Source of the DNA: Gammaproteobacteria bacterium | Lineage (GTDB): Bacteria; Pseudomonadota; Gammaproteobacteria; S144-34 | Assembly (NCBI GenBank): GCA_026989495.1 | Contig: JALSJE010000021.1 | Coordinates: forward strand, 17,239-81,238 | DNA: 64,000 nt | Direction of reading: 5' to 3' | Translations under genes and position numbers: made by a program | Shown: positions 1,985 through 60,773 of the stretch, piece by piece | Layout: the number at the start of each line of letters is the position of its first letter | How positions within the stretch are numbered: position 1 is the stretch's first letter | Notes under the pieces: generated by a model | What the model was told of the DNA's origin: nothing | Databases searched by the model: none | Seen by the model: the letters and a program-made list of their open reading frames with translations, nothing else

Positions 1985-3955
1985 TCAGGCGCCCTGGGCG
2001 GGGCCGGTGCCGCGGGCGCTGCCTGCGGCGAGCTCGGCCGGCCCCGGGTAGCCGAGGAGCTTGCGGATGCGGGCGAGCTCGGCGAGCTGGCGCTCGAGCC
2101 CGGCGCACTGGCGCTCGAGCTCGGCAATGCGCGCCTCCACGGTCTCGCGCGACTCGCTGATCCGGCGCAGGCTCTCGAGGCGCTTCTCCATGAGGCGCTT
2201 GCGCTCCTTGATCTGGCGCGCGAGCGGGCCCAGCACCCCCTTGAGCCAGTCCTCGGTCTCCTGGTTGGCGCGGAAGAAGACGTTGCGCGCCTGGCTGACC
2301 AGGGAGATGAAGAACTTGCGGATGACGAAGCTCTGCTCGGTCATGGTGGTGACGGGGCTGCGGCGGAAGGCCTCGGCCTCCTCGTGCAGGCGCCGCAGCT
2401 CCTGGGCATAGGCGCCCATGTCGAGCAGGCGCGGCGTGAGCGGCGGCAGGCCGTGCTCGCGGTGGAACTTGCGGAAGACGGCCTCGACCAGGCTGCGCGT
2501 CTCGGCCGCGCGCGCCTCGGCCTCGCCCATGGCCTCGAGCAGGCCGTCGAAGAGGGCCTTCATGGCGCGCTTCAGCCCGGGCGTGGTCCAGCTCTTGGCC
2601 ATCTCCACGCGCGCGGTGTGGATGCGCCTGTCGATGCGGTCGAGGCTGAGGGCGGCGAGCAGGTCGCGGGCCTGCTTGGCGAGCAGCCGCTTGCTGGACT
2701 GGTAGCTCTGCAGGTGGCGCAGGTAGGTGGCCTGCTCGGCGCGGGCCTTGCGCAGCAGGTCCTCGAGCACGGCGACGTTCTTGCCGCTGAGGCTGCGCAG
2801 CTCGTTGAGCTGGGCGCGCGCCTGCTCGAGCCTGCCCCCCACCACGCTGCGGGCGTTGTCGATCTGGTCGCCGACGCCGCGGTGCACTGCCTCTTGCAGG
2901 ATGACGCGCTTGCGCGCGAGCACCACCTCGGCGAAGTGGCGCTCCAGCGCACGCAGGCGGCTGCGGGCGAGCAGCGGCTCGTCGCCGCGCACCTTCGCCA
3001 CCAGGCCCTTCTGGGCCGAGACCGGGAACACCTGCGCCGGATCCACGCCCAGGATCCCGGCCACCTCCCGGCGCTGGCGCTCGATGGCGGCCTCGATCTC
3101 ATCGCGCCCGCTGAGCTCGTCCCAAAGGGTGTCGATCTTGTTGAGCACCACGACGACGCCCTGCTCGCCCCGACGGGCGAGGCGGGCCACGTGCTCGTTC
3201 CACATCTCCAGGTCGGAGCGGGTCACGCCCGTGTCGGCCCCCACCACGAACAGCACCGCCTGCGCGGCGGGCAGCGCGTTCAGCGTGAGCTCCGGCTCGG
3301 CGCCGATGGCGTTGAGGCCGGGCGTGTCCAGGATGGCGAGCCCCCGGCGCAGCAGGGGATGGGGGAAGCTGATGAGCGCGTGGCGCCACTTGGGGATCTC
3401 CACCTCCGCCTCCGCGGCGGCATCCTCGGGCGTGAGCCCCAGCGCACGCGCCTGCGCCGCCGGCACGCGCTTGGTGCGCACCACCTCCGCCAGGGTCTCG
3501 GCCATGGCGTCCGGATCGGCGGGGTCGAGGTAGAGGGTGACCCAATGGATGGGATCGCGCTTGTACTCGGAGACCGGGATGTCGGTGCGGCGCGTCTCGA
3601 TGGGCAGCAGCCGCACGTAGGGCCGCTCCACCTCGGGGTCATGGAAGATCTCGGTCGGGCACATGGTGGTGCGGCCCGCCTGCGAGGGCAGCAGCCGCCG
3701 GCCGTGCCCGGAGAAGAAGATGGCGTTGATGAGCTCGGTCTTGCCGCGGGAGAACTCGGCCACGAAGGCCACGGTCAGGCGGTCGTGGCGCAGGGCCTCG
3801 AGCGTCTCGTACAGGCGCAGGTCGTCCTCGGCCGTGGCCTCGCCGAAGTCTTCCAGCCAGGCCTGGAAGGCCTGCAGCCCCTCGAGCAGGGACGCGCGCG
3901 AGGCCGCGTAGGCCTCGAGCTCGCGCTCCAGCGCCGGATCCTCCCGTCCCGCCAT
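1985..3955 (-). CDS. dynamin-family large GTPase (bacterial dynamin-like protein)
   Basis: 656 aa. P-loop is FSRGKTELINAI, with LDTPGLNA (G3) and VLNKID (G4) motifs, followed by a long coiled-coil C-terminal half. This is the domain order of BDLP/LeoA/IniA-type proteins. Confidence 0.75.
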   Translation of the reverse strand: MAGREDPALERELEAYAASRASLLEGLQAFQAWLEDFGEATAEDDLRLYETLEALRHDRLTVAFVAEFSRGKTELINAIFFSGHGRRLLPSQAGRTTMCPTEIFHDPEVERPYVRLLPIETRRTDIPVSEYKRDPIHWVTLYLDPADPDAMAETLAEVVRTKRVPAAQARALGLTPEDAAAEAEVEIPKWRHALISFPHPLLRRGLAILDTPGLNAIGAEPELTLNALPAAQAVLFVVGADTGVTRSDLEMWNEHVARLARRGEQGVVVVLNKIDTLWDELSGRDEIEAAIERQRREVAGILGVDPAQVFPVSAQKGLVAKVRGDEPLLARSRLRALERHFAEVVLARKRVILQEAVHRGVGDQIDNARSVVGGRLEQARAQLNELRSLSGKNVAVLEDLLRKARAEQATYLRHLQSYQSSKRLLAKQARDLLAALSLDRIDRRIHTARVEMAKSWTTPGLKRAMKALFDGLLEAMGEAEARAAETRSLVEAVFRKFHREHGLPPLTPRLLDMGAYAQELRRLHEEAEAFRRSPVTTMTEQSFVIRKFFISLVSQARNVFFRANQETEDWLKGVLGPLARQIKERKRLMEKRLESLRRISESRETVEARIAELERQCAGLERQLAELARIRKLLGYPGPAELAAGSARGTGPAQGA

Positions 3956-6605: not shown

Positions 6606-7643
<1,038 letters not shown>

Positions 7644-8861: not shown

Positions 8862-9726
8862 TCACCAGACGACCTCGGCGGCGTCGAAGACCGGCCCGTC
8901 CACGCATACGCGGCGCATGGCAAGCCCCTGCGGGGTGCGCACGGGCACCGTGCAGCCGGCGCAGCCGCCCACCCCGCAGGCCATGTGCTCCTCCAGCGCC
9001 ACCTGGCAGGGCAGCCCCTGCTCGGCCGCAAGACGCGCCACCGCCGCCAGCATGGGGTGCGGCCCGCAGGCGTAGAGCTGCACCCCGCGCCGCGCGATCC
9101 CGGGCAGGGTCTCGAGCCAGGCGCGGGCGAGCTCGGTGACGAGCCCGCGGTGGCAGCCCGGGTGGCCGCGCCCGCTCGCGAGCCGTGCCGGCACGCCGGC
9201 CCGCTCGAGACGGGCCAGGCTGCGCTCCGCCTCGGCCGGGACGCCCGGGACCGGCAGCCGCGCGGGGACGAGCTCGAACGGGAAGGGGGCCTCCGAGCCC
9301 AGGAGGGCCACCGGCCGCCACGGCTCGCCCGCCGCCGCGAGCCGCTCGGCGAGGAAGATCACGGGGGGCATGCCCACGCCGCCGCCCAGGAGCAGCGCCC
9401 GGGGACGCGCCGGGTCGGGACGGAAGGGCCGGCCGATGGGCCCGAGCAGGCTGAGGCGCTCACCGGGGCGGCGGGCGGCGAGCCGCGCCGTGCCCAGCCC
9501 CACCACCTTGTAGAGCAGCTCCACGGTGCCCGCGGCCGGGTCGGCGCCCATGAGGGAGAGCGGCCTGCGCATGGGGAGCATCGGGTCGCAGCGCAGGTGC
9601 ACGAACTGCCCGGGCTCGGCGCGGGCGGCGCAGCGCGGCGCGCGCAGCACCAGCACGCGCTGGCCCTCCGGCCAGGCCTCGTGGCGCAGGACCTCGGCCT
9701 CCTCCAGTGCGATCGTACCGGTCACG
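8862..9726 (-). CDS. PyrK-like FAD/NAD(P)-binding oxidoreductase with C-terminal 2Fe-2S cysteine motif
   Basis: About 288 aa. RPLSL (FAD site), LLGGGVGMPP (NAD site) and a C-terminal CGVGGCAGC...C motif as in the dihydroorotate dehydrogenase electron-transfer subunit. Probable GTG start overlapping the pyrC' stop (GTGA). Confidence 0.6.
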
Positions 9727-11014
9727 TGCCCCGGTCCTCGTGGACGATGCGGCCGCCGAGCAGCGTCCAGCGCACCCGCCCCTTCAGGGTCCAGCCGGCG
9801 AAGGGGGTGTTGCGCCCGGCGCTCACCATGCGCGCCGGGTCGAGGCGCCACTCGGCGGCGGGGTCGAAGATGCACACGTCCGCGGACGAGCCCGGGGCGA
9901 GCGTGCCGGCCTCGATGCCGAGGATGGCGGCGGGGCCTGCGGTGAGGCGCTCGATGGCGGCCGGCAGCGTGAGGGTGCCCTCGTCCACCAGCCGCAGCGT
10001 GAGCGGCAGCAGCAGCTCCACCCCCGAGGCCCCCACTTCGGTGGAAGGAAAGGGGGCGAGCTTGGCGTCGGGCTCGTGGGGCTCGTGGTCGGAGCAGACC
10101 GCGCCGATGACGCCGCGGGCGAGCCCCTCGCGCAGGCCCTCGCGGTCGCGCCCGGTGCGGAGCGGCGGGTCGAGGTGGGCCTCGGCGTTGAAGCCGGCGA
10201 GGTCGGCCTCGGTGAGGTGCAGATGCGCCACGGCCACGTCGGCCGTGACCGGCAGCCCGTCGTACTGGGCGCGGGCGATCATGCGCACCGCGCGCGCGGT
10301 CGAGAGCCGCCCGAAGTGGGCGCGCACGCCCGTCTGCTCCACCAGCGCGAGGCAGCGGGCCACCTCGGCGGTCTCGGCCGCGGCCGGGATGCCGGGCAGC
10401 CCCAGGCGCGTGGCCACGGGCCCCTCGTGGGCGCAGCCGCCGTCGCGCAGCCACGCATCCATGGGGTGGATGTGCACGGTGAGCCCGAAGGTGGCGGCGT
10501 ACTCCATGGCGCGGCGCAGGACCAGCGTGTTCGGCACGGGGCGGCGCGCGTTGCCCACGCCCACGCAGCCCGCTTCCGCCAGCGCCGCCATCTCGCTCAG
10601 GCGCTCGCCGTCGAGGCCGCGCGTGAGCGCCCCGAGGCAGACCACGCGCGCGTGGCCCGCGGCCTCGGCCAGCCGCCGCACGAGCTCGGCCACCGCGGGC
10701 GTGTCGAGCACCGGGTCGGTGTCGGGCGGGCAGCAGAGCGTGGTCACCCCGCCGGCGGCGGCCGCGCGCGTCTCGCTCGCCACCGTGCCCTTGTGCTCCT
10801 GGCCCGGCTCGCGCAGGCGCGCGGCCAGATCCACCAGCCCCGGGCACACGACGAGCCCCGTCGCCTCCAGCACGCGGTCGGGCGTGAAGCCCTCGGGGGC
10901 GCGCCCGGCGGCGACGATGCGGCCGTCGGCGATGGCCAGCTCCCCCTCGGCATCGAGGCCGCCCGCCGGGTCGACGATGCGCCCGCCGCGGATGAGGATG
11001 CGCTCGCCGCTCAC
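9722..11014 (-). CDS. pyrC': dihydroorotase-like protein PyrC' (non-catalytic ATCase partner)
   Basis: 430 aa amidohydrolase fold. The N-terminal metal-binding HxH is replaced ([13 protein letters not shown] instead of DxHVHLREPG). GTG start overlaps the pyrB stop. Sits in the pyrR-pyrB-pyrC' arrangement typical of pseudomonads. Confidence 0.8.
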
Positions 11015-11991
11015 GCCGGCGTGCCCTCCCCGCCGCGGGCGGTCCGCATGGTCATGGAGATGATGGCCATGCGCACCGCGATGCCGTGCTCGACCTGCTC
11101 CAGGATCACCGAGCGCGGCCCGTCGGCCACGCGCGACTCGAGCTCCACCCCGCGGTTGATGGGGCCGGGGTGCATGACGATGGCGTCGGGGCGGGCCCGC
11201 GCCAGCCGCTCCTCGGTGAGGCCGTAGAGGCGGAAGTACTCGTGCTCGCTCGGCAGATGCGCGCCGCGCATGCGCTCCTTCTGCAGGCGCAGCATGATGA
11301 CGACGTCGGCGTCGCGCAGCCCGTCCTCCATGCGGTGGAAGACGTGCACGCCCAGGTCCTCCACGTGCGCCGGCAGCAGCGTGCGCGGGGCCACCACCCG
11401 CACCTCGCCCGTGCCCAGGGCGTTGAGGGCGTGGATCTGCGAGCGCGCCACGCGCGAGTGCAGGATGTCGCCCACGATGGCCACCACCAGGTCCTCGAAA
11501 CGGCCCTTGCGGCGGCGGATGGTGAAGACGTCGAGCAGGGCCTGGGTGGGATGTGCGTGGCGGCCGTCGCCGGCGTTGACCACGCTCACGTGCGGCTGCA
11601 CATGGCGGGCGATGAAGTGGGCCGCGCCGCTGTCGGCGTGGCGCACCACGAACATGTCCACGTGCATGGCCTCGAGGTTGCGCAGGGTATCCAGCAGGGT
11701 TTCGCCCTTGGTCGTGGCCGAGGCGGAGACGTTGATGTTGAGCACGTCGGCCGAGAGGCGCTTGGCCGCGAGCTCGAAGGTGGTGCGCGTGCGCGTGCTG
11801 GCCTCGAAGAACAGGTTGACGACGGTCTTGCCGCGCAGCAGCGGGACCTTCTTCACCGTCTGCTCGGCGACGCCGGCGAAGGACTCGGCCGCATCGAGTA
11901 TCTCTGTGAGCAGGCCGCGCTCCAGGCCCTCGACGGTCAGGAAGTGGCGCAGCCGCCCCTGCTCGTCCACCTGCAGCCGCGCGCCGCTCAT
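11011..11991 (-). CDS. pyrB: aspartate carbamoyltransferase catalytic subunit
   Basis: Start at [13 protein letters not shown] and HPTQ signature motifs are present. Overlaps the pyrR stop (ATGA). Confidence 0.9.
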
Positions 11992-12506
11992 GCCGCCTGC
12001 TTCTTCACCACGCTCAGCTCGAGGGGCTCGGGGCCGGCGAGCTCCACGTACTCGTCGGGGGCGAGCTCGAGGTGGCGGCCCGCCACCTGCGCCTCCACGG
12101 GGAGCTCGCGCCCGGGGCGCTCGACCAGCACCGCCAGCAGCACGGAGGCGGGGCGGCCGTAGTCGAAGATCTCGTTCAGGGCCGCTCGGATGGTGCGTCC
12201 GGTGTGCAGCACGTCGTCGACCAGCACGATGTGGCGGTCGTCCACGTTGAAGGGGATGTGGGACGGGCGCACCTGCGGGTTCATGCCCACGCGGGTGAAG
12301 TCGTCGCGGTAGAAGGAGATGTCGAGGGTGCCGAGAGGCTCGTCGAGACCGAGCAGGCGGTGGAGGCGCTCGGCCACCCACACGCCGCCGGTGTGGATGC
12401 CCACCATGGCCGGCGCATGCACGCCGCGCGCCTCGAGCCGCTCGCGCAGGGCCGCGGCCATCTCGGCGAGGACGGCGTCGATGTCGATGTCCAGCCTGCG
12501 GCTCAT
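11988..12506 (-). CDS. pyrR: bifunctional pyrimidine operon regulator/uracil phosphoribosyltransferase PyrR
   Basis: About 172 aa with the PRTase motif [12 protein letters not shown]. Start at [10 protein letters not shown]. Confidence 0.85.
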
Positions 12507-12979
12507 GGGCCCTCCCCCTGCGCGGTGACGCCGTCCAGCCAGGCCTGCAGGATGACCTGCGCCGCCGCCCGGTCGCGCGCGCCGCGCCGCGCCGGCCGGC
12601 GCAGGCGCCCCGCCGCCCGGGCCTCGCGGATGGCCGCGCGGGCGGCGGCGCTGCTCAGGCGCTCGTCCACGCGGTGGACCGGCAGCCGGTAGCGGGCCGC
12701 GAGCCGGCGGGCGAAGCGTTCCGCGGCGCGGGTGAGCGCGTGCGGCGTGCCGTCGAGATTGTACGGGATGCCCACCACCAGCGCATCGGGGCCCCACTCC
12801 GCCACCAGGCGGTCGAGCGCCGGCCAGTCCGGCCCGCGGGCCGCGGCCACCACCGCCAGCGGGCGCGCGGTGCGCGTCACGGTCTCGCCCACCGCCACCC
12901 CGATGCGGCGCAGCCCATAGTCGAAGCCGAGTACCGTCGCGGGTCGGGGCGAGCCCGCCGGGGCCGGACCGGGGCCCAT
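12503..12979 (-). CDS. ruvX: Holliday-junction resolvase-like protein RuvX/YqgF
   Basis: 158 aa; [15 protein letters not shown] is the RNase H-like YqgF signature. Confidence 0.85.
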
Positions 12980-12983: not shown

Positions 12984-13553
12984 TCAGGCGTGGCCCGCCT
13001 CGCCCGAGAGGCGGCCGAGATCGATCCCGAGATGGCGGGCGGCCGCCTCCCAGCGCGCCTCGTCCGGGGTCTCGAACACGATCGCCATGTCGGCGGGACC
13101 GCTGAGCCAGGCGTTGTCGGCCATCTCCTGCTCGAGCTGCCCCGGCGCCCAGCCGGCGTAGCCGAGGGCGACGAGGAAACGCTCCGGCCCCTCGCCCCGG
13201 GCGATGGCCTCGAGGATGTCGCGCGAGGTGGTGATGGCGACGGTCTCGGTCACCTGCAGGGTCGAGCTCCAGGCCCCCACCGGCTCGTGCAGCACGAAGC
13301 CGCGCTCGCGCTGCACGGGTCCGCCCACGTACACCGGAACCTCCAGCGCGCGGGGGTCGGTGGCGCGGATGCCCATGTGCTCCAGGATCTCGCCCAGGCG
13401 CATCTCGCTCGGCCGGTTGACCACCAGCCCCAGGGCCCCCTCCTCGTTGTGCTCGCAGATGTAGGTGACGGTGTGGAAAAAGTTCGGGTCCGCGAGCTGG
13501 GGCATCGCGATGAGGAAGTGGCCGGTGAGCCAGGCGCGCGTCTGCTCGTCCAT
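12984..13553 (-). CDS. yqgE: YqgE/AlgH family protein (UPF0301)
   Basis: Start at MDEQTRAWLTGHFLIAMP. The family motif GPVQRERGFVLH is present. Confidence 0.8.
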   Translation of the reverse strand: MDEQTRAWLTGHFLIAMPQLADPNFFHTVTYICEHNEEGALGLVVNRPSEMRLGEILEHMGIRATDPRALEVPVYVGGPVQRERGFVLHEPVGAWSSTLQVTETVAITTSRDILEAIARGEGPERFLVALGYAGWAPGQLEQEMADNAWLSGPADMAIVFETPDEARWEAAARHLGIDLGRLSGEAGHA

Positions 13554-13596: not shown

Positions 13597-14496
13597 TCAG
13601 CGGCCGCGCAGGCGGTTGGAGCTCAGGAACTCCCAGGTGCGGACGATATGCAGCACGTCGGTTTCACGGCGGATCTCCGGCGGAAAGGGGGCGAAGGGGG
13701 CGGCCAGCCGCACGATGCGCTTGGCTGCCTGGTCGAGCACGCGATGGCCCGAGGAGCGCGTGACGGTGATCTCGCGCACCGTGCCGTCGGCGTTGAGGGC
13801 CACGTCGAGGGTGAGCCGGCCCGAGAGCCCCCGCCGGCGGGCCTCGACCGGGTAGTTCAGGTTGCCGATACGCTCGACCTTCTCCACCCAGGCCTGCACG
13901 TAGGCGGCGTACTTGTGCCGGCGGGTGCGCGCGTGCACGTAGCGCTCGCGCAGCCGTTCGCCGCGGGCGCGTTCGCGCTCGCCCGGCTCGGCCTCGAGGC
14001 TGGCCAGCGCGAGGCTGCGGCTGTAGAGCGCGGCCGCGCTCAGGGGCGTGTTGCGGCTCGCGGGCGGAGCGGGCTCGGCCGGCGCGCGCGGTGCGGCCTC
14101 GGGCCGCGTGCGCGCGAGCCGCTCGGGAGCGGCGGCGCGCGCGGGGGTGGGGGGGCTGGCCTGGCTGGCCTGGGGGCCCGGGGTCTCGAGGGGGACGGTC
14201 TTCGGGGGCGCCTCGGGGCGCGCCGGCTCGCGCACGTTGCCGGCGCCGGCCTGGTCCGCGGCCGCCAGGTAGTCGGCCTGGTCCGGGGCCTTCTCCGCCG
14301 GCTGCCGGACGAGCGTCACGTCCAGGGTGGGCAGCGGGGGCTCGCTCGGGCGATCGAAGGGCGAGAAGCCGACGCCGAGGATGACGATGGCGTGGAAGGC
14401 CGCCGCCAGGGTCAGCGTCAGGGCGAGGCGGTCACGCGCCGGCGGCAGCGGGGGCGGCGGCGCGCCCGGGACCGCGGTGGCCGATGGGGTGCTCAT
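13597..14496 (-). CDS. TonB-family energy transducer (Pro/Ala-rich spacer, TonB C-terminal domain)
   Basis: About 299 aa from MSTPSAT. Has an N-terminal TM segment, a Pro-rich periplasmic spacer and a C-terminal TonB domain (YPVEARRRGLSGRLTLDVALNADGTVREITV). By position it corresponds to tonB3 of P. aeruginosa. Confidence 0.7.
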   Translation of the reverse strand: MSTPSATAVPGAPPPPLPPARDRLALTLTLAAAFHAIVILGVGFSPFDRPSEPPLPTLDVTLVRQPAEKAPDQADYLAAADQAGAGNVREPARPEAPPKTVPLETPGPQASQASPPTPARAAAPERLARTRPEAAPRAPAEPAPPASRNTPLSAAALYSRSLALASLEAEPGERERARGERLRERYVHARTRRHKYAAYVQAWVEKVERIGNLNYPVEARRRGLSGRLTLDVALNADGTVREITVTRSSGHRVLDQAAKRIVRLAAPFAPFPPEIRRETDVLHIVRTWEFLSSNRLRGR

Positions 14497-15107
14497 GCCG
14501 GCTCCGTGGCGTCCAGCTCGAGGATGCGCCAGGCGATTATACCGCTCAGGGTGCCGAAGGCCGCGGCCGCGGTCATGAGAGGCGCGGCCAGGTACAGGAA
14601 AGCCGGGTGGGGGACGAAGAGCAGCCACGCCACCCCGAGCTGGGCACCCATGTGGGCCAGGGCCGCTGCCAGGCTCAGGCCGAGGGGGCTCAGACCGCGC
14701 CCCGGCCCATCGTGCTGCCCGGCCCCCCTGCCTCGGGGGGCGATGCCGACGAGGCGCGCGGCCAGCCCCAGCACCACCAGCGCCCCGGTGGCACCCGCCG
14801 CGCTCAGGATGAAGGTGGGCGAGAGGAAGGTGCCGAGCAGGAGCGAGCCCACCAGCACGCGCAGCGCCCCCACCCACGCGGCCGTGCGCCAGCCGAAGCG
14901 CACCAGGGCGAGCACGGTCACCACATTGGCGAGCCCGGGCTTCATGCCCGGCACCGGGCTGGGCAGGGCTGTCTCCAGCACGTGGAGGGCGACCGCCAGC
15001 GCCGCGAGCGCCGCCACCTGCAGGTCCTCGCGCTCGGGCCGCAGCAGGGTGGTGCCCGGCGTCGCGCCGCTCATCCCGGGGAGGGTGGCGTCCGAGGGTG
15101 GGCTCAC
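14493..15107 (-). CDS. Gx transporter family / heptaprenyl-diphosphate-synthase-component-I-like membrane protein
   Basis: 204 aa, polytopic, with Gly/Ala-rich TM helices. Typical partner of NusG-II and ApbE genes. Confidence 0.5.
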   Translation of the reverse strand: MSPPSDATLPGMSGATPGTTLLRPEREDLQVAALAALAVALHVLETALPSPVPGMKPGLANVVTVLALVRFGWRTAAWVGALRVLVGSLLLGTFLSPTFILSAAGATGALVVLGLAARLVGIAPRGRGAGQHDGPGRGLSPLGLSLAAALAHMGAQLGVAWLLFVPHPAFLYLAAPLMTAAAAFGTLSGIIAWRILELDATEPA

Positions 15108-15119
15108 GGGCGGTCCGGG

Positions 15120-15497
15120 TCAGAAGTTGATGGCGTCATAGGCGCCGCCGGGACCGGTGAGGGTGACCACCACCCCGTTCGGCAGGCAGGCCGCGAGCGC
15201 GCCGGCCTCGCGCACCCAGCCGGCGCGCACGCACACCTTCGCCCGGCAGGGCGAGTCCACGAAACGGACCGCCCCGCCGCGCACCTCCAGCACGCTCTCG
15301 CCAAGCGCCCCGCGCACCCGGTAGGTGCCGGGCCGGTCGAGGGGGAGGTAGCGCGTCCCGAAGGGCGTCTCCACGCGGGCGGTCACCACCGGACCCGCCC
15401 CGGCCTGGCGCCAGGCGAGCACGTGCAGCCCCGCGAGCAGGACCGCCGCGAGGGCGAACACGACCAGGTCCGCGGGCGTCGGAAGCGGACGGCTCAC
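15120..15497 (-). CDS. NusG domain II-containing protein (DUF1312-like)
   Basis: About 125 aa tail of ORF 15120..16532, with an N-terminal TM segment followed by a beta-rich domain. The start (GTG overlapping the apbE stop) is uncertain. Confidence 0.45.
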   Translation of the reverse strand: MSRPLPTPADLVVFALAAVLLAGLHVLAWRQAGAGPVVTARVETPFGTRYLPLDRPGTYRVRGALGESVLEVRGGAVRFVDSPCRAKVCVRAGWVREAGALAACLPNGVVVTLTGPGGAYDAINF

Positions 15498-16588
15498 GGC
15501 GCGCCTCCCCCTGCGGGCGCCGCGGCCGTGCCCTCCGGAACGGCGGGCAGCGGCACGGTCTCCAGGGGCGGGGCGGGGCGCGCCACGATGCGCAGCCGCC
15601 GCGCGAGTGCCGGCGTGGCCTGGAGCCGGCCTGCCTCGTCCACCACCAGCACCTGGGTGAGCCCCAGCCGGGCCGCCACCGCCGGCCACTCGCGGGGGCC
15701 GGCCACGAACAGCGCAGTGGCGGCCGCGTCCGCCTCGCTGCCGTCGTCGTGGACCACCGTGACCGAGACGAGCCCGCGCGCGGGCCGGCCCGTGCGCGGG
15801 TCGAGGATGTGATGATAGCGCCGGCCCTGCCAGGTGAAGTAGCGCTCGTAGTCCCCGGAGGTGAAGACCGCCTCGCCGTCGGCCACCTCGAGGGCGGCCA
15901 GGATGCCGTTGCCGCGCGGGGCGCGGATGCCGATGCGCCAGGGGCGGTCCCCGTGGCGCCCGAGGACGCGCAGGTCGCCGCCGGCGTTGACCAGGGCGCT
16001 GGTCACGCCCAGGCGGCGCAGGCGCTCGACGGCCCGGTCCACGGCGAGCCCCTTGGCGAAGGCGCCGAAGTCGAGCTGCACCTCCGGGTTGCGCGAGCGC
16101 ACCCGGATGCCGCGCACCTCCAGGTCGAGGATGCTGGGCCGGGCGGCGAGCAGGGCGGCGATGCGCGCCGCGTCCGGAGGCGGGCGCTCGCCACCGGGAT
16201 CGTCGCCGTGGAAGCCCCACAGGGCGATGAGCTTTCCGATCCCCGGATCGAAAAGACCGCCCGAGGCCTCGGCGAGCGCGCGCGCCTCGACGATGAGGGG
16301 CAGCACCGAGGGCGCGGCCGAGAACCAGTGGCCCGTGGCGAGCAGCGTGTTGACCCGTCCGAGCGCCCCGGGGCGCCAGGCGTGCCAGGTGCGCTCCATA
16401 TAGGTGAAGTCGGCCTCCAGCGCGCGGTGGGCGCGCTCGGCGAGCCCCGCGGGCGCGCCGTGGAGGGTGAGCTCCACCACCGTGCCCATGGCGAGGAAGC
16501 TGTAGCGATGCTCGGGCGCCTCGCGCGCGCACCCGGCCGCGAGCAGCGCGGCCGCGAGCAGCGCGGCGGCGCGGACACGGGGCCTCAT
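15494..16588 (-). CDS. apbE: FAD:protein FMN transferase ApbE (lipoprotein)
   Basis: From MRPRVRAAALLAAALLAAGC (lipobox). Matches the ApbE family along its length (FLAMGT...DPSGIGKG...GGD). Its start overlaps the gshB stop. Confidence 0.85.
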   Translation of the reverse strand: MRPRVRAAALLAAALLAAGCAREAPEHRYSFLAMGTVVELTLHGAPAGLAERAHRALEADFTYMERTWHAWRPGALGRVNTLLATGHWFSAAPSVLPLIVEARALAEASGGLFDPGIGKLIALWGFHGDDPGGERPPPDAARIAALLAARPSILDLEVRGIRVRSRNPEVQLDFGAFAKGLAVDRAVERLRRLGVTSALVNAGGDLRVLGRHGDRPWRIGIRAPRGNGILAALEVADGEAVFTSGDYERYFTWQGRRYHHILDPRTGRPARGLVSVTVVHDDGSEADAAATALFVAGPREWPAVAARLGLTQVLVVDEAGRLQATPALARRLRIVARPAPPLETVPLPAVPEGTAAAPAGGGAP

Positions 16589-17826
16589 GGCCGCCCGCCT
16601 CCTGCCGTCCTGCGCCGGTCCCGTGCCGCGAGCCGCCGCGCGATGGCGTCCATGAGGTCGCCGGCGATGTCGAGCCCGTAGAGCGCGTCGAGCTCGCGGA
16701 TGCAGGTGGGGCTGGTGACGTTGATCTCGGTCAGCCAGCCCCCGATCACGTCCAGCCCGACGAAAAGCAGCCCGCGCTCGCGGAGCGCCGGGCCGAGGCG
16801 GGCGCAGATCTCGCGCTCGCGCCGATCCAGCGGCACCCCCTCGCCGCGGCCGCCGGCGGCGAGGTTGCCCCGCAGCTCGCCCGCGCGCGGGATGCGGGCG
16901 AGCGCGTAGGGCACGGGCTCGCCATCCACCAGGAGGATGCGGTGGTCGCCCCCGGTGCGGATCTCCGGGACGAAGCGCTGGGCCATGCACCAGCGCCGGC
17001 CGTGCGCCGTCATGGTCTCGAGGATCACGGGGCGGTTGGGGTCGTCGCGGCGCAGGTAGAAGACGGACTCGCCGCCCATGCTTCCGAGGGGCTTGAGCAC
17101 GATCTCGCCGTGCGCCTCGAGGAAGGCCTCGATGCGTGCCGGCTCGCGCGCCACCACGAAGGGCGGGGCGAGGTCGGCGAACCAGGCCAGCCAGAGCTTC
17201 TCGTCCACCTCGCGCAGCGCCCGCGGGGCGTTGACCACCAAGGTCCCCGCCGCCTCGGCGCGCTCCAGGATCCAGGTCGCGCGCAGGTATTCGAGGTCCA
17301 CGGGCGGATCCTTGCGCATGAGGATCACGTCGAGCGTGTGCAGCGGGGCCTCCTCCGGCTCGCCCAGCTCGTACCAGCCCGCCGGGTCGTCGCGCACCGC
17401 GAGCGGGCGCATGCGGGCCCAGGCCTCGGCGCCCGCCGTGCCGGAGCCGGATGCCCAGGTCGCGGGATCTGGGCCGGTGCCGGAGGCGGGCCGCCCCGCC
17501 TGCGGGCGCTGCGGCGCTCCCCGCGACTGCGCGCTGCGCGCGCCCGTGTCCGCGCCGCCGCCTCGTCGTCGCCTTTCCGCATCCCCGGCTGCCTGATACC
17601 GTTCCGCCTCCCCGCGCTCTGGGACTCGGCGGCCGTGCGGCGCTCCCCGCGACTGCGCGCTGCGCGCGCCCGTGTCCGCGCCGCCCGCCAGCCACAGGTC
17701 GCCGAGCTCCATGTAGCGCAGGCTCCAGCCGCGCGCCTGCGCGGCCAGCAGCATGGCGAAGGTGCTGTCCTTGGCGATGCGGATGTCCTCGATGGGGTCC
17801 ATCACGACCCCGAGCCGCACGCTCAC
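16585..17826 (-). CDS. gshB: glutathione synthetase (ATP-grasp) with a long in-frame N-domain insertion
   Basis: Aligns with E. coli GshB from VSVRLGVVMDPIEDI to the C-terminus. About 84 extra Gly/Ala/Arg-rich residues lie between GDLWL and AWARMRPLAV. GTG start overlaps the gshA stop. Confidence 0.85.
   Translation of the reverse strand: MSVRLGVVMDPIEDIRIAKDSTFAMLLAAQARGWSLRYMELGDLWLAGGADTGARSAQSRGAPHGRRVPERGEAERYQAAGDAERRRRGGGADTGARSAQSRGAPQRPQAGRPASGTGPDPATWASGSGTAGAEAWARMRPLAVRDDPAGWYELGEPEEAPLHTLDVILMRKDPPVDLEYLRATWILERAEAAGTLVVNAPRALREVDEKLWLAWFADLAPPFVVAREPARIEAFLEAHGEIVLKPLGSMGGESVFYLRRDDPNRPVILETMTAHGRRWCMAQRFVPEIRTGGDHRILLVDGEPVPYALARIPRAGELRGNLAAGGRGEGVPLDRREREICARLGPALRERGLLFVGLDVIGGWLTEINVTSPTCIRELDALYGLDIAGDLMDAIARRLAARDRRRTAGGGRP
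17511..17685. repeat. Perfect 49-bp direct repeat (2 copies, 126-bp spacer) inside the gshB coding sequence
   Basis: gcggcgctccccgcgactgcgcgctgcgcgcgcccgtgtccgcgccgcc occurs at about 17511-17559 and again at about 17637-17685. The spacer between the copies is lower in GC. Confidence 0.6.
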
Positions 17827-19121
17827 GGCGCGGCCTCGCGCATCTCGCGCGCGGCGGCCACCAGCGCGAGCCGTGCCACCACGCCGTAGGCGTAGAAGCG
17901 GTTGGGGCCCGCGTCCGGGTCGCTGCGCGCATCCGGCGTGTTGCACGACCCCGTGAAGGCGAGCGGCTGGAAGTGCATGCCGGGGGCGTTGAGATTCTCG
18001 GTGGGGCCGCGGCCGGTGTGCACCCGGTAGAAGCCGCCCACCACATAGTGATCGATCATGTAGACCACGGGCTCGGCCACGGAGGAGCCGTCCTCCCAGG
18101 TTTCGAAGGTGTAGACCCCTTCCTGCAGCAGCACGCGCCGCACCGCGCGTCCGCCCTTGGTGGTGGCCATGCGCGTGCGCTGGCGCCGGCTCAGGCCGCG
18201 CACCTCCTCCGGGCTGCGCGCCACCATCACCGCCATGCCGTAGGTGCCGGCGTCGGCCTTGATCACCACGAAGGGCTCACGGTCTATGCCGTGCTCGTCG
18301 TACTTTGCGCGGATGGCCTCGAGGAGCCGGGCCACGTTGCGCTCCAGGCAGGCCTCGCCCTCGCGGCGCAGGAAGTCGATCTCGCCGCAGTTGCGATAGA
18401 GGGGCTCGATGAGCCAGGGGTCGATGTCGATGAGGGCTGCGAACTCTTCGGCCACGCGGTGGTAGTGCTCGAAGTGGCGGAACTTGGAGCGGTCCGCCCA
18501 GCCCAGGTGCAGGGGCGGGGCGACGGGCTGCTCGATGTCCTCCAGGATCGCCGGGCGCCCGCCGGCGAGGTCGTTGTTGAGCAGCACCATGCAAGGGTCG
18601 AATCCGGCCACGCCCACGCGCGCCCCGTGCCGCTCCAGGGGCTCGAGCACCACCTCGCGGCCCGAGGGCAGCTCGATGCGGCGCGGGCCCTCGAGATCCT
18701 CGATGAGCGAGCCGATGCGCACCTCGTAGCCCGCCTGCGCCACGATGCCGGCCAGCGTCGCGAGGCTCTCCAGGTAATAGGTGTTGCGGGTATGGCTCTC
18801 GGGCACGATCAGCACGCGGCTCGCCGTGGGGCAGAGCCGCTCGATGGCGGCCTGCATGGCCTGCACGCACAGCGGCAGGAAGGCCGGGTTGAGGTTGTTG
18901 AACCCGGCCGGAAAGAGGTTGGTGTCCACCGGCGCGAGCTTGAAGCCCGCGTTGCGCAGGTCCACCGACGCGTAGATGGGTGCGGGCGTGGCGAGCCACT
19001 GGCGGCGCAGCCAGGCCTCGATGGCGCTCTGGCGCTCGAGCAGGTGCGACTCCAGGGTCAGCAGCGGCCCCGTGAGCGCGGTGGTCAGGTGCGGTACGGT
19101 CTGCAGTGTCGGTGCGGCCAT
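17823..19121 (-). CDS. gshA: putative glutamate--cysteine ligase (rare Acidithiobacillus-type GshA family)
   Basis: 432 aa, translationally coupled to gshB. It is not the E. coli-type GshA; I recall the family from memory and did not run a search. Confidence 0.55.
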   Translation of the reverse strand: MAAPTLQTVPHLTTALTGPLLTLESHLLERQSAIEAWLRRQWLATPAPIYASVDLRNAGFKLAPVDTNLFPAGFNNLNPAFLPLCVQAMQAAIERLCPTASRVLIVPESHTRNTYYLESLATLAGIVAQAGYEVRIGSLIEDLEGPRRIELPSGREVVLEPLERHGARVGVAGFDPCMVLLNNDLAGGRPAILEDIEQPVAPPLHLGWADRSKFRHFEHYHRVAEEFAALIDIDPWLIEPLYRNCGEIDFLRREGEACLERNVARLLEAIRAKYDEHGIDREPFVVIKADAGTYGMAVMVARSPEEVRGLSRRQRTRMATTKGGRAVRRVLLQEGVYTFETWEDGSSVAEPVVYMIDHYVVGGFYRVHTGRGPTENLNAPGMHFQPLAFTGSCNTPDARSDPDAGPNRFYAYGVVARLALVAAAREMREAAP

Positions 19122-45611: not shown

Positions 45612-45788
45612 GGCGCGCGTGCCATGGCCACCGGAGAGGGCGGGGCGACCCGCCCTTTCTCTTTGGGGAGAAGGCCAGCAGCAGGCAGCACGTGGCGAGG
45701 GAGGCGCGGCTTCCAGCCGCGCCCCGCCGGCGGGGCCGCTTTCCGCACGGCATCCGCAGACCCTGGCGCCCTGATTCTCATAAGGAAG

Positions 45789-45960
45789 CTCTGAAAAATC
45801 CGATTTTTCAGACCTTTCCCGCGGCCAGGGACGGCCGCGGGACGGCCCATGCACAGGGAAGTGCATGACGATACGACGAAAAATCGAAATGGAACGCGAA
45901 GCACCTCAGCGCTGATCAATCCGCGCAGCGGATTGATCAGAGTTTCCATCAGAGTTTCCA
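45789..45960 (+). repeat. structured intergenic repeat, copy C (inverted relative to A/B; 12-bp terminal duplication)
   Basis: gctctgaaaaatccgatttttcagacc - cccgcggccAGGGAcggccgcggg - catgcacAGGGAagtgcatg - ctgatcaatccgcGCAGCgcggattgatcag - agtttccat(cagagtttccat). Lies between fba and the aldolase-Dabb gene. Confidence 0.8.
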
Positions 45961-46071
45961 TAAGCATTCATTTATCGAAAACAAATCTGGAATCGATTGG
46001 AATTCATCGACTGCTTGTGGACAGAATAACGCGGCCGCCTGAGGCGGCCGCGGACGCGAGGAGGACCCACC

Positions 46072-53116: not shown

Positions 53117-54868
53117 TCAGGCGCCCACGCCCGGGTTGCCCTCGACGCCCTTGAGGCGCGGGACGTTGAGCTCCTTGATCCTCACGACCTTCTTGTCGCG
53201 CAGGTACTCGGCGACCACGTCCCACACGGGCCGGCCCTCCAGGGGCTTGGCCACGCTCGCCCAGCCCGCGACGGTGTAGGTCTTCTTCGGATCGATGGGC
53301 TGGCCGTCCAGCTCCATGTCGCTGATGCGGTGGCCGATGTCGGCCTCGGGGTCCATGGTGTACCTGAGGCCGCCGACACGCACCATGTCGCCGCCCTGCT
53401 GGTAGTAGGGGTCCTTGTTGAACAGGTTGTCGGCCACGTCCTCGAGGATCATCTTGATCTGCTCGCCCGTCATCTCGTTGAGCGTGACCACCGGGTAGGT
53501 GATGGCGGTCTGGGTCATGACATGCTCGAAGGTGATCGGGTCGCCGGGCAGCACGCTCACGCCCCAGCGGAAGCCGGGAGAGAAGGCGATCTGGGCCCCC
53601 ATCACTTCCATGAGGGCATCGCAGATGAGCTGGTCGAAGGTGCCGTTGAAATTGCCGCGTCGGTAGAGGAGGTCGTCGGTGACGGCGAGCTGCTCCTCGA
53701 GCTTCTCCTTGTAGGGCGCACGCACCTGTTCGATGTAGGCGCTCATGGTCGGGTCCGGCTCGAGGAAGTTCGCGAACACCGGCAGCAGCCTGTAGCGGTA
53801 GTCGCGCACCTTGCCGTCCTTGACGTCGAGGTCCAGCACCGAGAGGAACTTGCCGTTCGAGCCGGAATTGATGACCAGGGTCTTGCCGCCGGGATTGGAG
53901 ACCTCCACCGGGCGCGGCACGGCGTCGTGCGTGTGGCCGCCCATGATGGCGTCGATGCCGCGCACGCGGCTCGCCATCTTGAGGTCCACGTCCATGCCGT
54001 TGTGGGAGAGGACGATGACCACCTGGGCCCCTTTCTCCCGCGCCTCGTCCACCACCTGCTGCATGTCCTCCTCGCGGATGCCGAAGCTCCACTCGGGGAT
54101 GAGGTAGGCGGGGTTGGCGATGGGCGTGTACGGAAAGGCCTGGCCGATGATGGCCACCGGGACCCCGTTGATCTCGCGGATCACGTAGGGCTCGAAGATA
54201 CGCTCGCCCCAGTCCTTGTCCACCACGTTCTGGGCGACGAAGTCGATCTTGCCCTTGAAGTCCTTCTCCACGATCGCCTTCACGCGCTCGGCGCCGAAGG
54301 TGAACTCCCAGTGCGGGCACATGACGTTGACGCCGAGCAGGATCTGGGCGTCCACCATGTCCTGGGCGTTGGACCAGAGCGAGGTGGCCGAGCCCTGCCA
54401 GGTGTCGCCGCCATCCAGCAGCAGCGCCCCGGGCCGCTGCTCGCGGACCTTCTTGACCAGGGTCGCCAGGTGGGCGAAGCCACCTACCTTGCCGTACTTG
54501 CGGGCGAGCTCGACGAAGTCGAGATAGGTGAAGGCATGAGCCTCCGGGGTGCCGGGCTGGATGCCATAGTGCTTGAGGAAGGCCTCGCCCACCAGATGCG
54601 GGGGCTTGCCCCGCATGGAGCCGACGCCGATGTTGTGGCTCGGTTCACGGAAGTAGAGGGGCAGGAGCTGCGCATGGCAGTCGGTGTAGTGCAGCAGGCT
54701 CACGTTGCCGAAGGGCGGCAGCTCGTAGAGGGTGCCCGGGGTCTTGCTCGGCTTTGGCCCGGCGGCGGGCTTCTGCTGGTCCGAGCCAGGCTCGCAGCCG
54801 GCCAGGTTGATCCCGGCCGCGGCCGCCGCCGCCAGGATCTGCATGAACTCACGGCGGGAGATGTTCAT
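53117..54868 (-). CDS. soxB: thiosulfohydrolase SoxB
   Basis: 583 aa with a Tat signal (SRREFMQILAAAAAAG). Dinuclear-Mn metallophosphoesterase/5'-nucleotidase-like fold. Matches SoxB along its length. Confidence 0.9.
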   Translation of the reverse strand: MNISRREFMQILAAAAAAGINLAGCEPGSDQQKPAAGPKPSKTPGTLYELPPFGNVSLLHYTDCHAQLLPLYFREPSHNIGVGSMRGKPPHLVGEAFLKHYGIQPGTPEAHAFTYLDFVELARKYGKVGGFAHLATLVKKVREQRPGALLLDGGDTWQGSATSLWSNAQDMVDAQILLGVNVMCPHWEFTFGAERVKAIVEKDFKGKIDFVAQNVVDKDWGERIFEPYVIREINGVPVAIIGQAFPYTPIANPAYLIPEWSFGIREEDMQQVVDEAREKGAQVVIVLSHNGMDVDLKMASRVRGIDAIMGGHTHDAVPRPVEVSNPGGKTLVINSGSNGKFLSVLDLDVKDGKVRDYRYRLLPVFANFLEPDPTMSAYIEQVRAPYKEKLEEQLAVTDDLLYRRGNFNGTFDQLICDALMEVMGAQIAFSPGFRWGVSVLPGDPITFEHVMTQTAITYPVVTLNEMTGEQIKMILEDVADNLFNKDPYYQQGGDMVRVGGLRYTMDPEADIGHRISDMELDGQPIDPKKTYTVAGWASVAKPLEGRPVWDVVAEYLRDKKVVRIKELNVPRLKGVEGNPGVGA

Positions 54869-55051
54869 CGACGTCCTCCAGGGTCTCGTGCGTTGCCAGG
54901 AAGCGGAAGGCGCGAGCGGGATCGTCGTCGTTGTCGTCGTGATGGCTGGTGCCGTCTGACCGCCCGCAAGCTGCGGCCGATTATAGAAATCGGCACTGCC
55001 GAAGCCAAGCGCCTGACTGAGTGTCCGTGCCTTCGTCCGGTCCGGTTACAG

Positions 55052-55092
55052 GCACAAAAGAAGAGGCCCCGGCACGGGCCGGGGCCTCTCGT
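55052..55092 (-). terminator. intrinsic terminator-like hairpin between soxA and soxB
   Basis: gaggccccggc-acgg-gccggggcctc (11-bp GC stem) followed on the minus strand by uucuuuugug. Confidence 0.45.
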
Positions 55093-55113
55093 GGCCCAAG
55101 GTGCGCCGGCGTG

Positions 55114-55980
55114 TCACATGCGCACGCCGGGCGCGTTGATGGGCAGCCCGTTGCTCATGTAGGTGTGGAAGTACTCCAGCGAGCGGTACTCCACGCTCTG
55201 GGCCTTGAAGGGCTTGGCGCGCACCTGCTTGTTGCAGCCGGTGTAGCGGCGCTGGATGGTGCCGAAGCCGGCCAGCGCGCCGCTGCCCTTGGCCTCCCAC
55301 TTCTTGCGGTAGGCAGGAAAATGGGTCACCTGGCCGAGGGCGGGGCTCAGCAGGTTGGCGCGGATGCGACGACCGGGATTGGCCACGTGACAGTCGGCGC
55401 AGGAGAAGTTGAGCTGGCCGCGCTTGGCGTAGAAGAAGCGCTTGCCGCGCTCATACCAGGCAAGCGCGTCCGGGTCGTCCTCCGGCACAACGACATTGAT
55501 GCGCTTGCCCCGCGAGAGGTAGCCGATGTAGGCGGAGACCGCCGCCAGCTTGCCCTTCTTCCACTTGTAGGGCTTCTCGCCGTTGGCCTTGCGGCACTCG
55601 TTGATGGCGAGCTCGAGCGTGATCACCTCCTTGCGCTTCGGATCCCAGTAGGGGTAGTTCTGCTTGATGCCCTTCTCGGCGTCGGGGAAGCAGTCGGCGA
55701 GCGATTTGCCGTTCTTGAATTTCTTGTAGAACTCGGCCTTGCCGATGTCGAGCCCCAGCTCGTAGGGCGGGAACTCTTCCATCTGCTCCCACTCGGCACG
55801 CATGCCGGCATCGATGGCATAGACGCCATTGGCGAACTCGTCCAGCGGCACGCCGGGGAAGCGTTTCATGTAATACTCCCGGAATGCCTTGAGGTCCTCC
55901 TTCGGGCCGGCCTGGGCGAGAAGCGGGGCGCCTGCCGCCAGGCCCGCCGCGGCAGCCAGGATCAGAGTCTTGCTCTTCAT
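55114..55980 (-). CDS. soxA: diheme cytochrome c SoxA
   Basis: 288 aa with a signal peptide and CADCH heme motif. Matches the SoxA family. Confidence 0.9.
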   Translation of the reverse strand: MKSKTLILAAAAGLAAGAPLLAQAGPKEDLKAFREYYMKRFPGVPLDEFANGVYAIDAGMRAEWEQMEEFPPYELGLDIGKAEFYKKFKNGKSLADCFPDAEKGIKQNYPYWDPKRKEVITLELAINECRKANGEKPYKWKKGKLAAVSAYIGYLSRGKRINVVVPEDDPDALAWYERGKRFFYAKRGQLNFSCADCHVANPGRRIRANLLSPALGQVTHFPAYRKKWEAKGSGALAGFGTIQRRYTGCNKQVRAKPFKAQSVEYRSLEYFHTYMSNGLPINAPGVRM

Positions 55981-56033
55981 GGTTCGTCTCTCCTTATGTT
56001 TCGTTATCGAGACCGTCGGGGTGGCGGGTGCCG

Positions 56034-56348
56034 TCAGCGGATGACGGCCTCCCTGGAGTCGCTCTGGCCCTTGTTGTCCTTCCAGCTCAGCTTCACCTTC
56101 TCTCCCTTCTTCCCGCCCGTGAACTTGAACGAGATATACGGGTTCTTCGAGATCGCCGGACCCCAGTGCGCCGTCAGCACCTCCTTGCCCTCGTGCTCGG
56201 CCTTCACCTCCTGAATGTAATGCGCCGGAATCTTCTTCCCCGTCTTCTTGTCCTTGCGCTGACCCGTCTCCATCGGATGCGCCATCAGCGCCTTCACCAC
56301 CACCACACCATTGCGCTCGGTCGCGCGAATCTTGATCGTCGACGCCAT
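56034..56348 (-). CDS. soxZ: thiosulfate-binding protein SoxZ
   Basis: 104 aa (MASTIKIRA...) matching the SoxZ family. Confidence 0.85.
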   Translation of the reverse strand: MASTIKIRATERNGVVVVKALMAHPMETGQRKDKKTGKKIPAHYIQEVKAEHEGKEVLTAHWGPAISKNPYISFKFTGGKKGEKVKLSWKDNKGQSDSREAVIR

Positions 56349-56379
56349 CGCTCAGTCCTCCTCTCGCTCCAGACCCCGA

Positions 56380-56850
56380 TCAGCCACCACAGCCACCAAT
56401 CGTCACCTTCACCTCCTTGCGCGCACTGTAGAGCTTGCCTCCCGCCTGCACCACCGCAATCACGTCCGAGGTCTTGCCCATCTTGATGCGCGTCGACACA
56501 TAACCCTGCGCATTCGCAGCCAGATCATAGCTCGAGGTCAGAGGCTGCGGGTTCTTCTCCACGAAGATCGCCATGCGCTCCACGCCCCCAAGCCCGGCCG
56601 ACACCGTCACCGGCACCACCGCACCGTTCTCGGCGATGTCCGGCGCCTTCACCCTCACCTTCCCGGAGGCCTCCGTCAGATCGCTCCCCACCAGCGCCTT
56701 CAGCGCATCCTGCACCGACTTCGCCTCGAACGCCGTCTGCGGCCACGCCGCCAGCACCCTCCGCGGCGCCAGCAGCCCACTGCCCACCGCCACACCAACG
56801 GCTCCCACCGCCAGCGTGCCCTTCAGAAAGGTCCTGCGCTTGCTGTCCAC
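56380..56850 (-). CDS. soxY: sulfur carrier protein SoxY
   Basis: 156 aa with a Tat-like signal (KRRTFLKG). The C-terminus is GGCGG, carrying the substrate-binding Cys. Confidence 0.9.
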   Translation of the reverse strand: MDSKRRTFLKGTLAVGAVGVAVGSGLLAPRRVLAAWPQTAFEAKSVQDALKALVGSDLTEASGKVRVKAPDIAENGAVVPVTVSAGLGGVERMAIFVEKNPQPLTSSYDLAANAQGYVSTRIKMGKTSDVIAVVQAGGKLYSARKEVKVTIGGCGG

Positions 56851-56908
56851 TTTCGTTCTACCTCCGGAACCGAGTGCTTGCGAAAATTTCCCGAGCCTTG
56901 CCTGCCGT

Positions 56909-58987: not shown

Positions 58988-59040
58988 CGTTCGTGAGACC
59001 TACCTTATTACACGCAGGTTCCCCGGGAAAGGAGCCGGCG

Positions 59041-60762: not shown

Positions 60763-60773
60763 GAGGGATTCCC

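Follow-up and report, generated by a model that had tools for sequence, protein, structure and literature searches.

A probable ApbE-EetA-EetB flavinylation module within a conserved gshAB-tonB-pyr gene string of a sulfur-oxidising gammaproteobacterium

In Listeria, the membrane protein EetB has a fold like that of the S-components of energy-coupling factor (ECF) transporters, binds flavin adenine dinucleotide (FAD), and is required both to export FAD and for the ApbE homologue FmnB to flavinylate PplA (PMC9973259). Its partners are the ECF-T protein FmnA and EcfA/A'; an eetB mutant is partially rescued by exogenous FAD, EetB is unable to substitute for RibU in flavin uptake, and deletion of eetA has no phenotype in extracellular electron transfer (PMC9973259). 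Rivera-Lugo et al. 2023 (PMC9973259) call PF07009 proteins EetA and PF07456 proteins EetB in their Data Set S1, membership of PF07456 being the operational definition of EetB. There, eetB was counted in 4,214 of 31,910 genomes, with eetA adjacent in 3,328 of the 4,214, apbE in 2,169, ECF-A genes in 796 and ECF-T genes in just 291; the Rnf-associated apbE-eetA-eetB clusters of Clostridia account for 572 genomes, and some Gram-negatives have a flavin exporter that is not co-localised with apbE (PMC9973259). In a 2025 review, the way in which FAD gets to ApbE is still described as obscure, and EetB goes unmentioned. Here we analysed a 64,000-nt stretch of the gammaproteobacterial contig JALSJE010000021.1 (the window), in which genes for an ApbE protein, a NusG_II protein and a Gx protein lie between gshB and tonB. 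This triad is the already described ApbE-EetA-EetB flavin-trafficking and flavinylation module, and no new kind of system.

An earlier note on this stretch had assigned ApbE, NusG-II and Gx domains to the three products, and a Pfam search confirmed all of them, with matches to PF02424, PF07009 and PF07456 well over the gathering thresholds (Table 1). The note had also described the NusG-II/Gx pair as an uncharacterised partner set; instead, the pair corresponds to EetA and EetB of Rivera-Lugo et al. 2023 (PMC9973259). To a large extent, the triad is thus the routine, characterised maturation cassette in relatives that the note had set against its own proposal. The assignment was made at the Pfam family level for both EetA and EetB and, additionally, by fold for EetB; NCBIfam holds no model matching either protein.

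The AlphaFold model of EetB (predicted local distance difference test score (pLDDT), 85; predicted template modelling score (pTM), 0.78) is a six-helix ECF-S-like membrane protein. All of the top 18 PDB matches to the model are S-components of ECF transporters (RibU, ThiT, BioY, PanT and FolT), with a probability of 0.99-1.0 and template modelling scores (TM-scores) up to 0.70. Among 72 homologues, D28, A32xxxA36, H42, E45, K56, N61, H152 and Q156 are invariant. The A32xxxA36 motif lies in helix 1 and resembles the ECF-T docking motif of S-components, a hint that an ECF partner module may be encoded at another site in the genome. The window EetB also carries a 15-aa Gly/Arg-rich loop insertion of low pLDDT (residues 120-134; 14706-14750) and an N-terminal extension (15075-15107), both absent from 17 aligned homologues.

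The ApbE protein matches 13 solved ApbE/Ftp chains in a phmmer search and aligns to the structures 1vrm, 5mgy and 4xdt, with conservation of TSGDYERYF, YHHILDPRTG (YHHILDPxTG) and EADAAAT (ADAxxTA). It thus has the signatures for FAD binding, Mg binding and catalysis, namely, TSGxY, H-[IL]-x-D-P and A-D-A-x-x-T. T243, S244, G245, Y247, H260 and D263 show no variation across 58 clade ApbEs, and D287 and T291 show almost none. The N-terminus, MRPRVRAAALLAAALLAAGC, contains a predicted signal peptide ending in LLAAGC, in which AAGC is lipobox-like by motif match, and such a motif was found in 51 of the 58 clade ApbEs. Additionally, Trp occupies the FAD-stacking 'switch' position in 57 of the 58. 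FAD-binding Ftps have Tyr at this site, and Asn or Ala in its place gives FAD pyrophosphatase activity. By sequence, the aromatic switch residue matches the FAD-binding class and not the FAD-pyrophosphatase class.

The switch position bears directly on a salvage reading, in which ApbE would be a periplasmic FAD pyrophosphatase and EetB would import the released flavin. Some ApbE/Ftp proteins, for example, Ftp of T. pallidum, do hydrolyse FAD in the periplasm; moreover, ECF S-components are classically importers, and the fold matches of EetB include the riboflavin importer RibU. However, the near-uniform Trp argues against pyrophosphatase activity, and Listeria EetB is needed in export and does not replace RibU in uptake. 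Judging by its sox, sHdr and carbon-metabolism genes, the host also seems to live freely as a chemolithoautotroph, which makes flavin auxotrophy unlikely. We consider flavin salvage improbable.

EetA has a hydrophobic N-terminal anchor (residues 11-29), and its C-terminal domain is predicted to be periplasmic. Among 50 aligned homologues, D10, G63, G66, P83, C89, G93, W94, G99, C104-L-P-N and D121 are invariant, and C84 is conserved in 96%, giving the motif C84-x4-C89...C104-L-P-N. The conserved Cys residues could form a disulfide or a metal site. The PDB relatives of EetA are 4obi and 3ld7/2kpp; they retain only the Cys of CLP[HN], apart from 4obi, which also retains the first Cys. The clade EetAs also carry a C-terminal D-x-I-x-F.

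We regard it as probable that the triad is an ApbE/EetA/EetB flavin-trafficking and flavinylation module fixed within the tightly packed housekeeping string gshA-gshB-apbE-eetA-eetB-tonB3-algH-ruvX-pyrR-pyrB-pyrC'. By analogy with Listeria, EetB would bind cytoplasmic FAD through its six-helix ECF-S fold and carry it across the inner membrane. At the periplasmic side, the ApbE lipoprotein would use FAD and Mg2+ to attach flavin mononucleotide (FMN) by a phosphoester bond to Thr or Ser residues of envelope redox proteins, with release of adenosine monophosphate (AMP). This FMN-transfer chemistry is established for ApbE, and the window protein carries the sequence signatures. EetA, a predicted single-pass membrane protein with a NusG-II-type domain on the periplasmic side, would be co-expressed with ApbE and might act as an accessory or adaptor between EetB and ApbE. 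The substrates would be encoded elsewhere in the genome, with proteins of the RnfG/RnfD type the likeliest.

The conservation of this arrangement was surveyed by searching the EetB alignment against one genome per species, which gave at least 587 relatives. The best 80 loci were retained, all gammaproteobacterial by record title save a few with unclassified or phylum-level titles. The window proteins were mapped onto these 80 loci, and the 61 with at least 2.5 kb upstream of eetB were taken as informative. apbE lies upstream of eetB in 50 of the 61 informative loci, with the complete gshB-apbE-eetA-eetB-tonB order in 46 of those 50, and tonB lies downstream of eetB in 73 of all 80. The nearest relative has the same gene order and junction pattern, with a spacer solely between eetA and eetB. 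The apbE/eetA junction is the most tightly conserved, with a 4-nt or 1-nt overlap in 57 of 62 loci, and such overlaps also occur at gshB/apbE (34 of 55) and at eetB/tonB (33 of 72, the two genes lying within 15 nt in 57). Across the loci, eetA and eetB are usually separated by a short spacer, and tonB and algH by about 48 nt.

In Alkalilimnicola ehrlichii, the order given by Data Set S1 (PMC9973259) is pyrB-pyrR-ruvX-algH-tonB-EetB-EetA-ApbE-gshB, and the data set includes partial equivalents from a Thioalkalivibrio and from a Nevskiales genome. The arrangement had been called unusual in the earlier note; with the same order in A. ehrlichii and in the majority of the 80 species genomes, the operon position is the usual one in a large set of sulfur-oxidising and halophilic Gammaproteobacteria. 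Nor does the word 'inserted', by which the note described the module, fit an established direction of change: the triad is spread over several gammaproteobacterial orders, and a triad that was present in the ancestor and later lost from pseudomonads and enterics is as possible as insertion. In E. coli, gshB-yqgE-yqgF remain adjacent, and therefore the backbone is an old synteny of functionally unrelated genes. The link of the triad to glutathione synthesis and TonB3 is best read as inherited operon architecture and not as a shared pathway.

In the window itself, genes were located by frame analysis of GC content at third codon positions (GC3) and by a codon-position likelihood gene caller, which placed all genes between 8.9 and 19.1 kb on the minus strand (Table 1). 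A second public assembly with an independent gene call has the same genes with identical lengths. Because GC content is so high (71% for the window and 75-80% at the locus), raw lists of open reading frames (ORFs) are crowded with spurious frames. The order of transcription is gshA, gshB, apbE, eetA, eetB, tonB, algH, ruvX, pyrR, pyrB, pyrC' and a PyrK-like gene, and pilG-pilH-pilI-pilJ-cheR-chpA run divergently from the gshA string, starting at 19.4 kb. This agrees with the operon context given in the earlier note (gshAB upstream, tonB-algH-ruvX-pyr downstream, and divergent pilGHIJ-chpA).

Table 1. Coordinates of the gene string and associated features in the window (L088 and L090 are metagenome contigs)
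Feature	Description	Position	Strand	Evidence
gshA	Glutamate-cysteine ligase (PF08886/TIGR02049 type), heads the gene string	17823-19121	minus	Pfam 1.3e-184; TIGR02049 (NCBIfam) 564 bits, cut-off 294; GC3 frame
gshB	Glutathione synthetase, 413 aa	16585-17826	minus	PF02951 + PF02955; NF003573 411 bits; alignment with relatives
gshB insertion	In-frame, 252 nt (84 codons), two units of a dispersed 126-nt-period GC-rich repeat	17428-17679	minus	
Repeat core	Further positions on metagenome contigs	L088 1044-1108; L090 5303-5398		
Shine-Dalgarno-like hexamer	AGGAGG, within the gshB 3' end, 9 nt 5' of the apbE ATG	16598-16603	minus	Direct reading
apbE	FAD:protein FMN transferase, predicted lipoprotein	15494-16588	minus	PF02424, E = 3e-76 (257 bits, cut-off 25.6)
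eetA	NusG_II protein, 125 aa	15120-15497	minus	PF07009, 5.6e-17
eetB	PF07456 'Gx transporter', misnamed heptaprenyl diphosphate synthase component I (Hpre_diP_synt_I)	14493-15107	minus	PF07456, E = 1.5e-32 (113 bits, cut-off 30)
tonB	Positional counterpart of Pseudomonas tonB3	13597-14496	minus	PF03544, 8.7e-17; TIGR01352
algH/yqgE	DUF179 (PF02622); 43-nt spacer after tonB	12984-13553	minus	
ruvX		12503-12979	minus	
pyrR		11988-12506	minus	
pyrB		11011-11991	minus	
pyrC'		9722-11014	minus	
PyrK-like gene	Fe-S protein	8862-9725	minus	

Direct reading of the sequence gave 4-nt overlaps at gshA/gshB (GTGA), gshB/apbE (ATGA), apbE/eetA (GTGA) and eetB/tonB (ATGA). Between eetA and eetB, a spacer of 12 nt separates the TGA stop (15120-15122) from a GTG start at 15107; the spacer would be 45 nt if eetB began at the alternative ATG at 15074. 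These two genes cannot overlap because they share one reading frame. The statement in the note that every junction overlaps therefore holds for four of the five junctions from gshA to tonB and fails at NusG_II/Gx. A read-through fusion of EetA and EetB at the TGA was also considered and rejected, since the frame is shared in just 12 of 62 relatives and is probably a coincidence; EetA-EetB fusions have been reported in 14 genomes.

The gshB/apbE overlap would fit translational coupling and is no mark of a special relationship; a Shine-Dalgarno-like hexamer lies within the last part of gshB. In the window, 4-nt overlaps occur at 11 of 48 same-strand junctions, and 8 of these 11 belong to the gshA-pyr string, where the junctions from ruvX through the PyrK-like gene are mostly of this kind. 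A promoter and terminator scan of 8.5-20 kb gave matches at chance level and no convincing internal terminator.

Flavinylation targets were sought in the same DNA. No predicted window protein contains the strict motif D-x-x-[ST]-G-A-[ST]. Loose SGAT matches occur in three proteins, namely, ProC, pyruvate kinase (both cytoplasmic) and the non-conserved N-terminus of EetB; the last was rejected as a flavinylation site because it is not conserved even in a 74%-identical relative. Pfam scans of the unidentified window ORFs and public gene tables covering about 10 kb past either end revealed no FMN_bind, Rnf, Nqr or NosR protein; apbE therefore has no rnf, nqr or nos genes beside it in the 64-kb window and these flanks. 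The observation in the note that no canonical target lies nearby thus stands. Thioalkalivibrio sulfidophilus, a relative within the clade, encodes rnfABCDGE elsewhere in its genome, and therefore RnfG/RnfD-type proteins would be the most plausible substrates. The part of the Méheust et al. 2021 supplements that was available contains no per-genome substrate lists for Alkalilimnicola, Halorhodospira, Arhodomonas or Thioalkalivibrio.

EetA itself comes into question as a non-canonical ApbE substrate, and the triad would then be a self-contained flavoprotein system. The tightness of the apbE/eetA junction would fit such a role, as would two highly conserved Ser residues of EetA, S68 and S82. In addition, 'orphan' apbE genes led Méheust et al. 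to the new substrate families DUF2271 and DUF3570, and 4% of apbE genomes in their study still lack a known substrate. However, not one of the 50 aligned clade EetAs contains an [S/T]GA[S/T] motif, and the hint in the note that the NusG-II protein is the flavinylated target is thus not supported. The invariant EetA residues are Cys, Gly, Trp, Pro, Asn and Asp and not a Thr/Ser flavinylation site, the eetA deletion in Listeria left extracellular electron transfer unchanged, and relatives do have Rnf genes. We therefore hold this role of EetA to be very unlikely, the least likely of the explanations weighed here.

Several observations weigh against the flavinylation-module reading. Membership of EetA and EetB is based on Pfam family and fold and not on direct comparison with the Listeria proteins. 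The window ApbE scores 108.8 bits against the E. coli-type equivalog model NF007774 of NCBIfam, far under the cut-off of 498, and is therefore a family member and not an E. coli-type orthologue. Listeria EetB needs both an ECF-T protein and an ATPase, and neither ECF-T nor EcfA/ABC ATPase genes were found in the window or in flanks of about 10 kb; likewise, none of the 80 loci has an ABC-ATPase-like ORF within 7 kb of eetB. No flavinylation substrate came to light in the roughly 84 kb of the genome that could be seen. Since the eetA deletion in Listeria lacks a phenotype, the adaptor role of EetA is a guess. Finally, at least six loci (L008, L010, L011, L014, L022 and L052; eetB at about 7001-7500 in each) contain eetB-tonB-algH-ruvX-pyrR-pyrB without apbE, eetA or gshB upstream, and in L010 eetB comes first after a divergent phosphoglucomutase (pgm) gene. 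The eetB-tonB link outlasts the ApbE link, and a purely ApbE-centred reading leaves it unaccounted for.

The lack of ECF genes nearby leaves room for an EetB that exports FAD alone or with the aid of EetA. It is possible, and we put this forward tentatively, that EetB in this clade exports FAD by itself or with help from EetA or TonB3, without a dedicated ECF-T protein or ATPase, and that the strongly coupled pair ApbE-EetA receives FAD directly at the membrane. If true, it would be the missing FAD route to periplasmic ApbE in many Gram-negatives, and the reason for the fixed place next to gshAB and tonB3 might be that envelope redox maintenance is co-regulated.

The module reading does not account for one small regularity, namely, how tight and how well conserved the eetB-tonB junction is. 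The TonB protein has an N-terminal transmembrane helix with a His, a Pro-rich linker and a TonB_C domain, and corresponds to TonB3 in this domain (PF03544, TIGR01352), in its place between gshB and algH and in the nearby pilGHIJ-chpA. No exbBD or pocAB genes were found in the 64-kb window. EetB and TonB3 might form a functional unit, in which the TonB-like protein, with PocAB/ExbBD-type partners, energises or gates EetB, or in which flavin export is tied to the TonB3 polar-organelle system. The close or overlapping junction at most loci, the eetB-tonB-algH order kept in the six loci that lack the upstream genes, and the absence of an ECF-A-like gene near eetB in all 80 loci speak for such a unit. 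However, the two genes, although usually joined, can be separated either way. The triad occurs without tonB in Sinimarinibacterium (L073), a solitary eetB without tonB is found in Thiorhodospira and in loci of the Thioploca, Thiomargarita and Beggiatoa type, and pseudomonads, which have tonB3, are not known to have eetB. Moreover, 4-nt overlaps also link plainly unrelated genes of the string, for example, ruvX and pyrR, the known role of TonB3 is the localisation of type IV pili and flagella with PocAB, and A32xxxA36, with its likeness to the ECF-T docking motif, points to a conventional ECF partner encoded elsewhere. An EetB-TonB3 unit is accordingly an unlikely explanation of the junction.

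In Candidatus Thiomargarita nelsonii (L080 6986-8334), the solitary eetB overlaps (ATGA) a 278-aa GspC-like gene, whose product has an N-terminal transmembrane helix and a PDZ-like C-terminus; here, eetB is again paired with an envelope-spanning TonB/GspC-like anchor.

The host is a sulfur-oxidising gammaproteobacterium, as indicated by the sulfur-oxidation gene set at 53117-64000 of the window, with SoxB-like and SoxYZ-like proteins and cytochromes followed by rhodanese, TusA, DsrE and sHdr (HdrC/B/A-like) proteins. The sHdr cluster leads on into LbpA (GCV_H) and lipoate-assembly genes. The pseudomonad framing of the earlier note is useful for comparison, and a pseudomonad origin is ruled out by the 71% GC, the PF08886-type GshA and the sox and sHdr genes. 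The exact proteins of the locus were met on metagenome contigs only. The closest EetB relative has 74% identity, and the next are from uncultured Gammaproteobacteria, Ectothiorhodospiraceae, Chromatiaceae and Arhodomonas.

The window gshB has an in-frame insertion (Table 1), and its product is 413 aa long instead of the usual ~315 aa because of it. The insertion contains a 55-nt direct repeat (17505-17559 and 17631-17685, spaced 126 nt), and the GC3 codon periodicity is lost across it. It falls in a hairpin of the N-terminal domain and is absent from the aligned GshB of 45 relatives, the nearest one included. The repeat core was also found on three other contigs of one Joint Genome Institute (JGI) metagenome. 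On one of them (L089 8059-8367), it forms a perfect, intergenic tandem array of 126 nt x 2.5; of the single copies, one lies between grpE-like and hrcA-like genes and one inside a 1,007-aa oxidoreductase-like gene. A one-off assembly error was rejected because a second assembly has the same 413-aa gshB and the repeat occurs at other loci, and a structured RNA was rejected because the predicted fold is no better than that of shuffled sequences (z = +1.46). A stop-free 126-nt (42-codon) repeat in frame inside genes brings to mind the Rickettsia palindromic elements.

Two further features of the window were observed. A gene for a 656-aa dynamin-family GTPase lies between metX and yggT/proC (1985-3955, minus strand). 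An unusually AT-rich intergenic region (45700-46070) lies 5' of the second class-II aldolase-like gene and contains the palindrome CTGATCAATCCGCGCAGCGGATTGATCAG and the direct repeat AGTTTCCATCAGAGTTTCCAT; a 165-nt stretch of it is 92% identical to L089 11162-11324, on another metagenome contig.

For annotation, products called 'heptaprenyl diphosphate synthase component I' in these genomes should be renamed EetB-like flavin exporter subunit, and those called 'NusG domain II protein' should be renamed EetA. This clade-wide form of the module, detached from substrate genes and from an ECF module, offers a clean Gram-negative setting for studying FAD delivery to periplasmic ApbE and the role of EetA.

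The closest described counterpart is Listeria FmnB-EetA-EetB, with which the locus shares adjoining PF02424, PF07009 and PF07456 genes, an ECF-S-like EetB and an extracytosolic lipoprotein ApbE, the relatedness being at the family and fold level. Unlike in Listeria, the host is Gram-negative, the module is embedded in a housekeeping operon, no ECF-T (FmnA) or EcfA/A' gene lies nearby, and the cluster is without a PplA-like substrate, Ndh2 and demethylmenaquinone (DMK) genes. The Rnf-associated clusters of Clostridia and the nqr-apbE/nos-apbE maturation genes of Vibrio and Pseudomonas stutzeri resemble it in that ApbE would probably mature FMN sites of the RnfG/D or NqrB/C type, with EetB as FAD supplier, whereas the window module is not beside a substrate operon. 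The Gram-negative flavin exporter referred to at the outset is Bfe, the FAD exporter of Shewanella from the multidrug and toxic compound extrusion (MATE) family; it would likewise supply FAD to the periplasm but belongs to an unrelated transporter family. In Pseudomonas aeruginosa, the gene order is gshB-tonB3-algH-ruvX-pyrR-pyrB-pyrC' (PA0407-PA0401), beside pilGHIJK-chpA; published work names gshB as PA0407 and tonB3 as PA14_05300. The locus thus shares with P. aeruginosa the backbone order and the divergent pilG-pilH-pilI-pilJ-cheR-chpA, and this clade differs from both P. aeruginosa and E. coli in having gshA right upstream of gshB and apbE-eetA-eetB between gshB and tonB.

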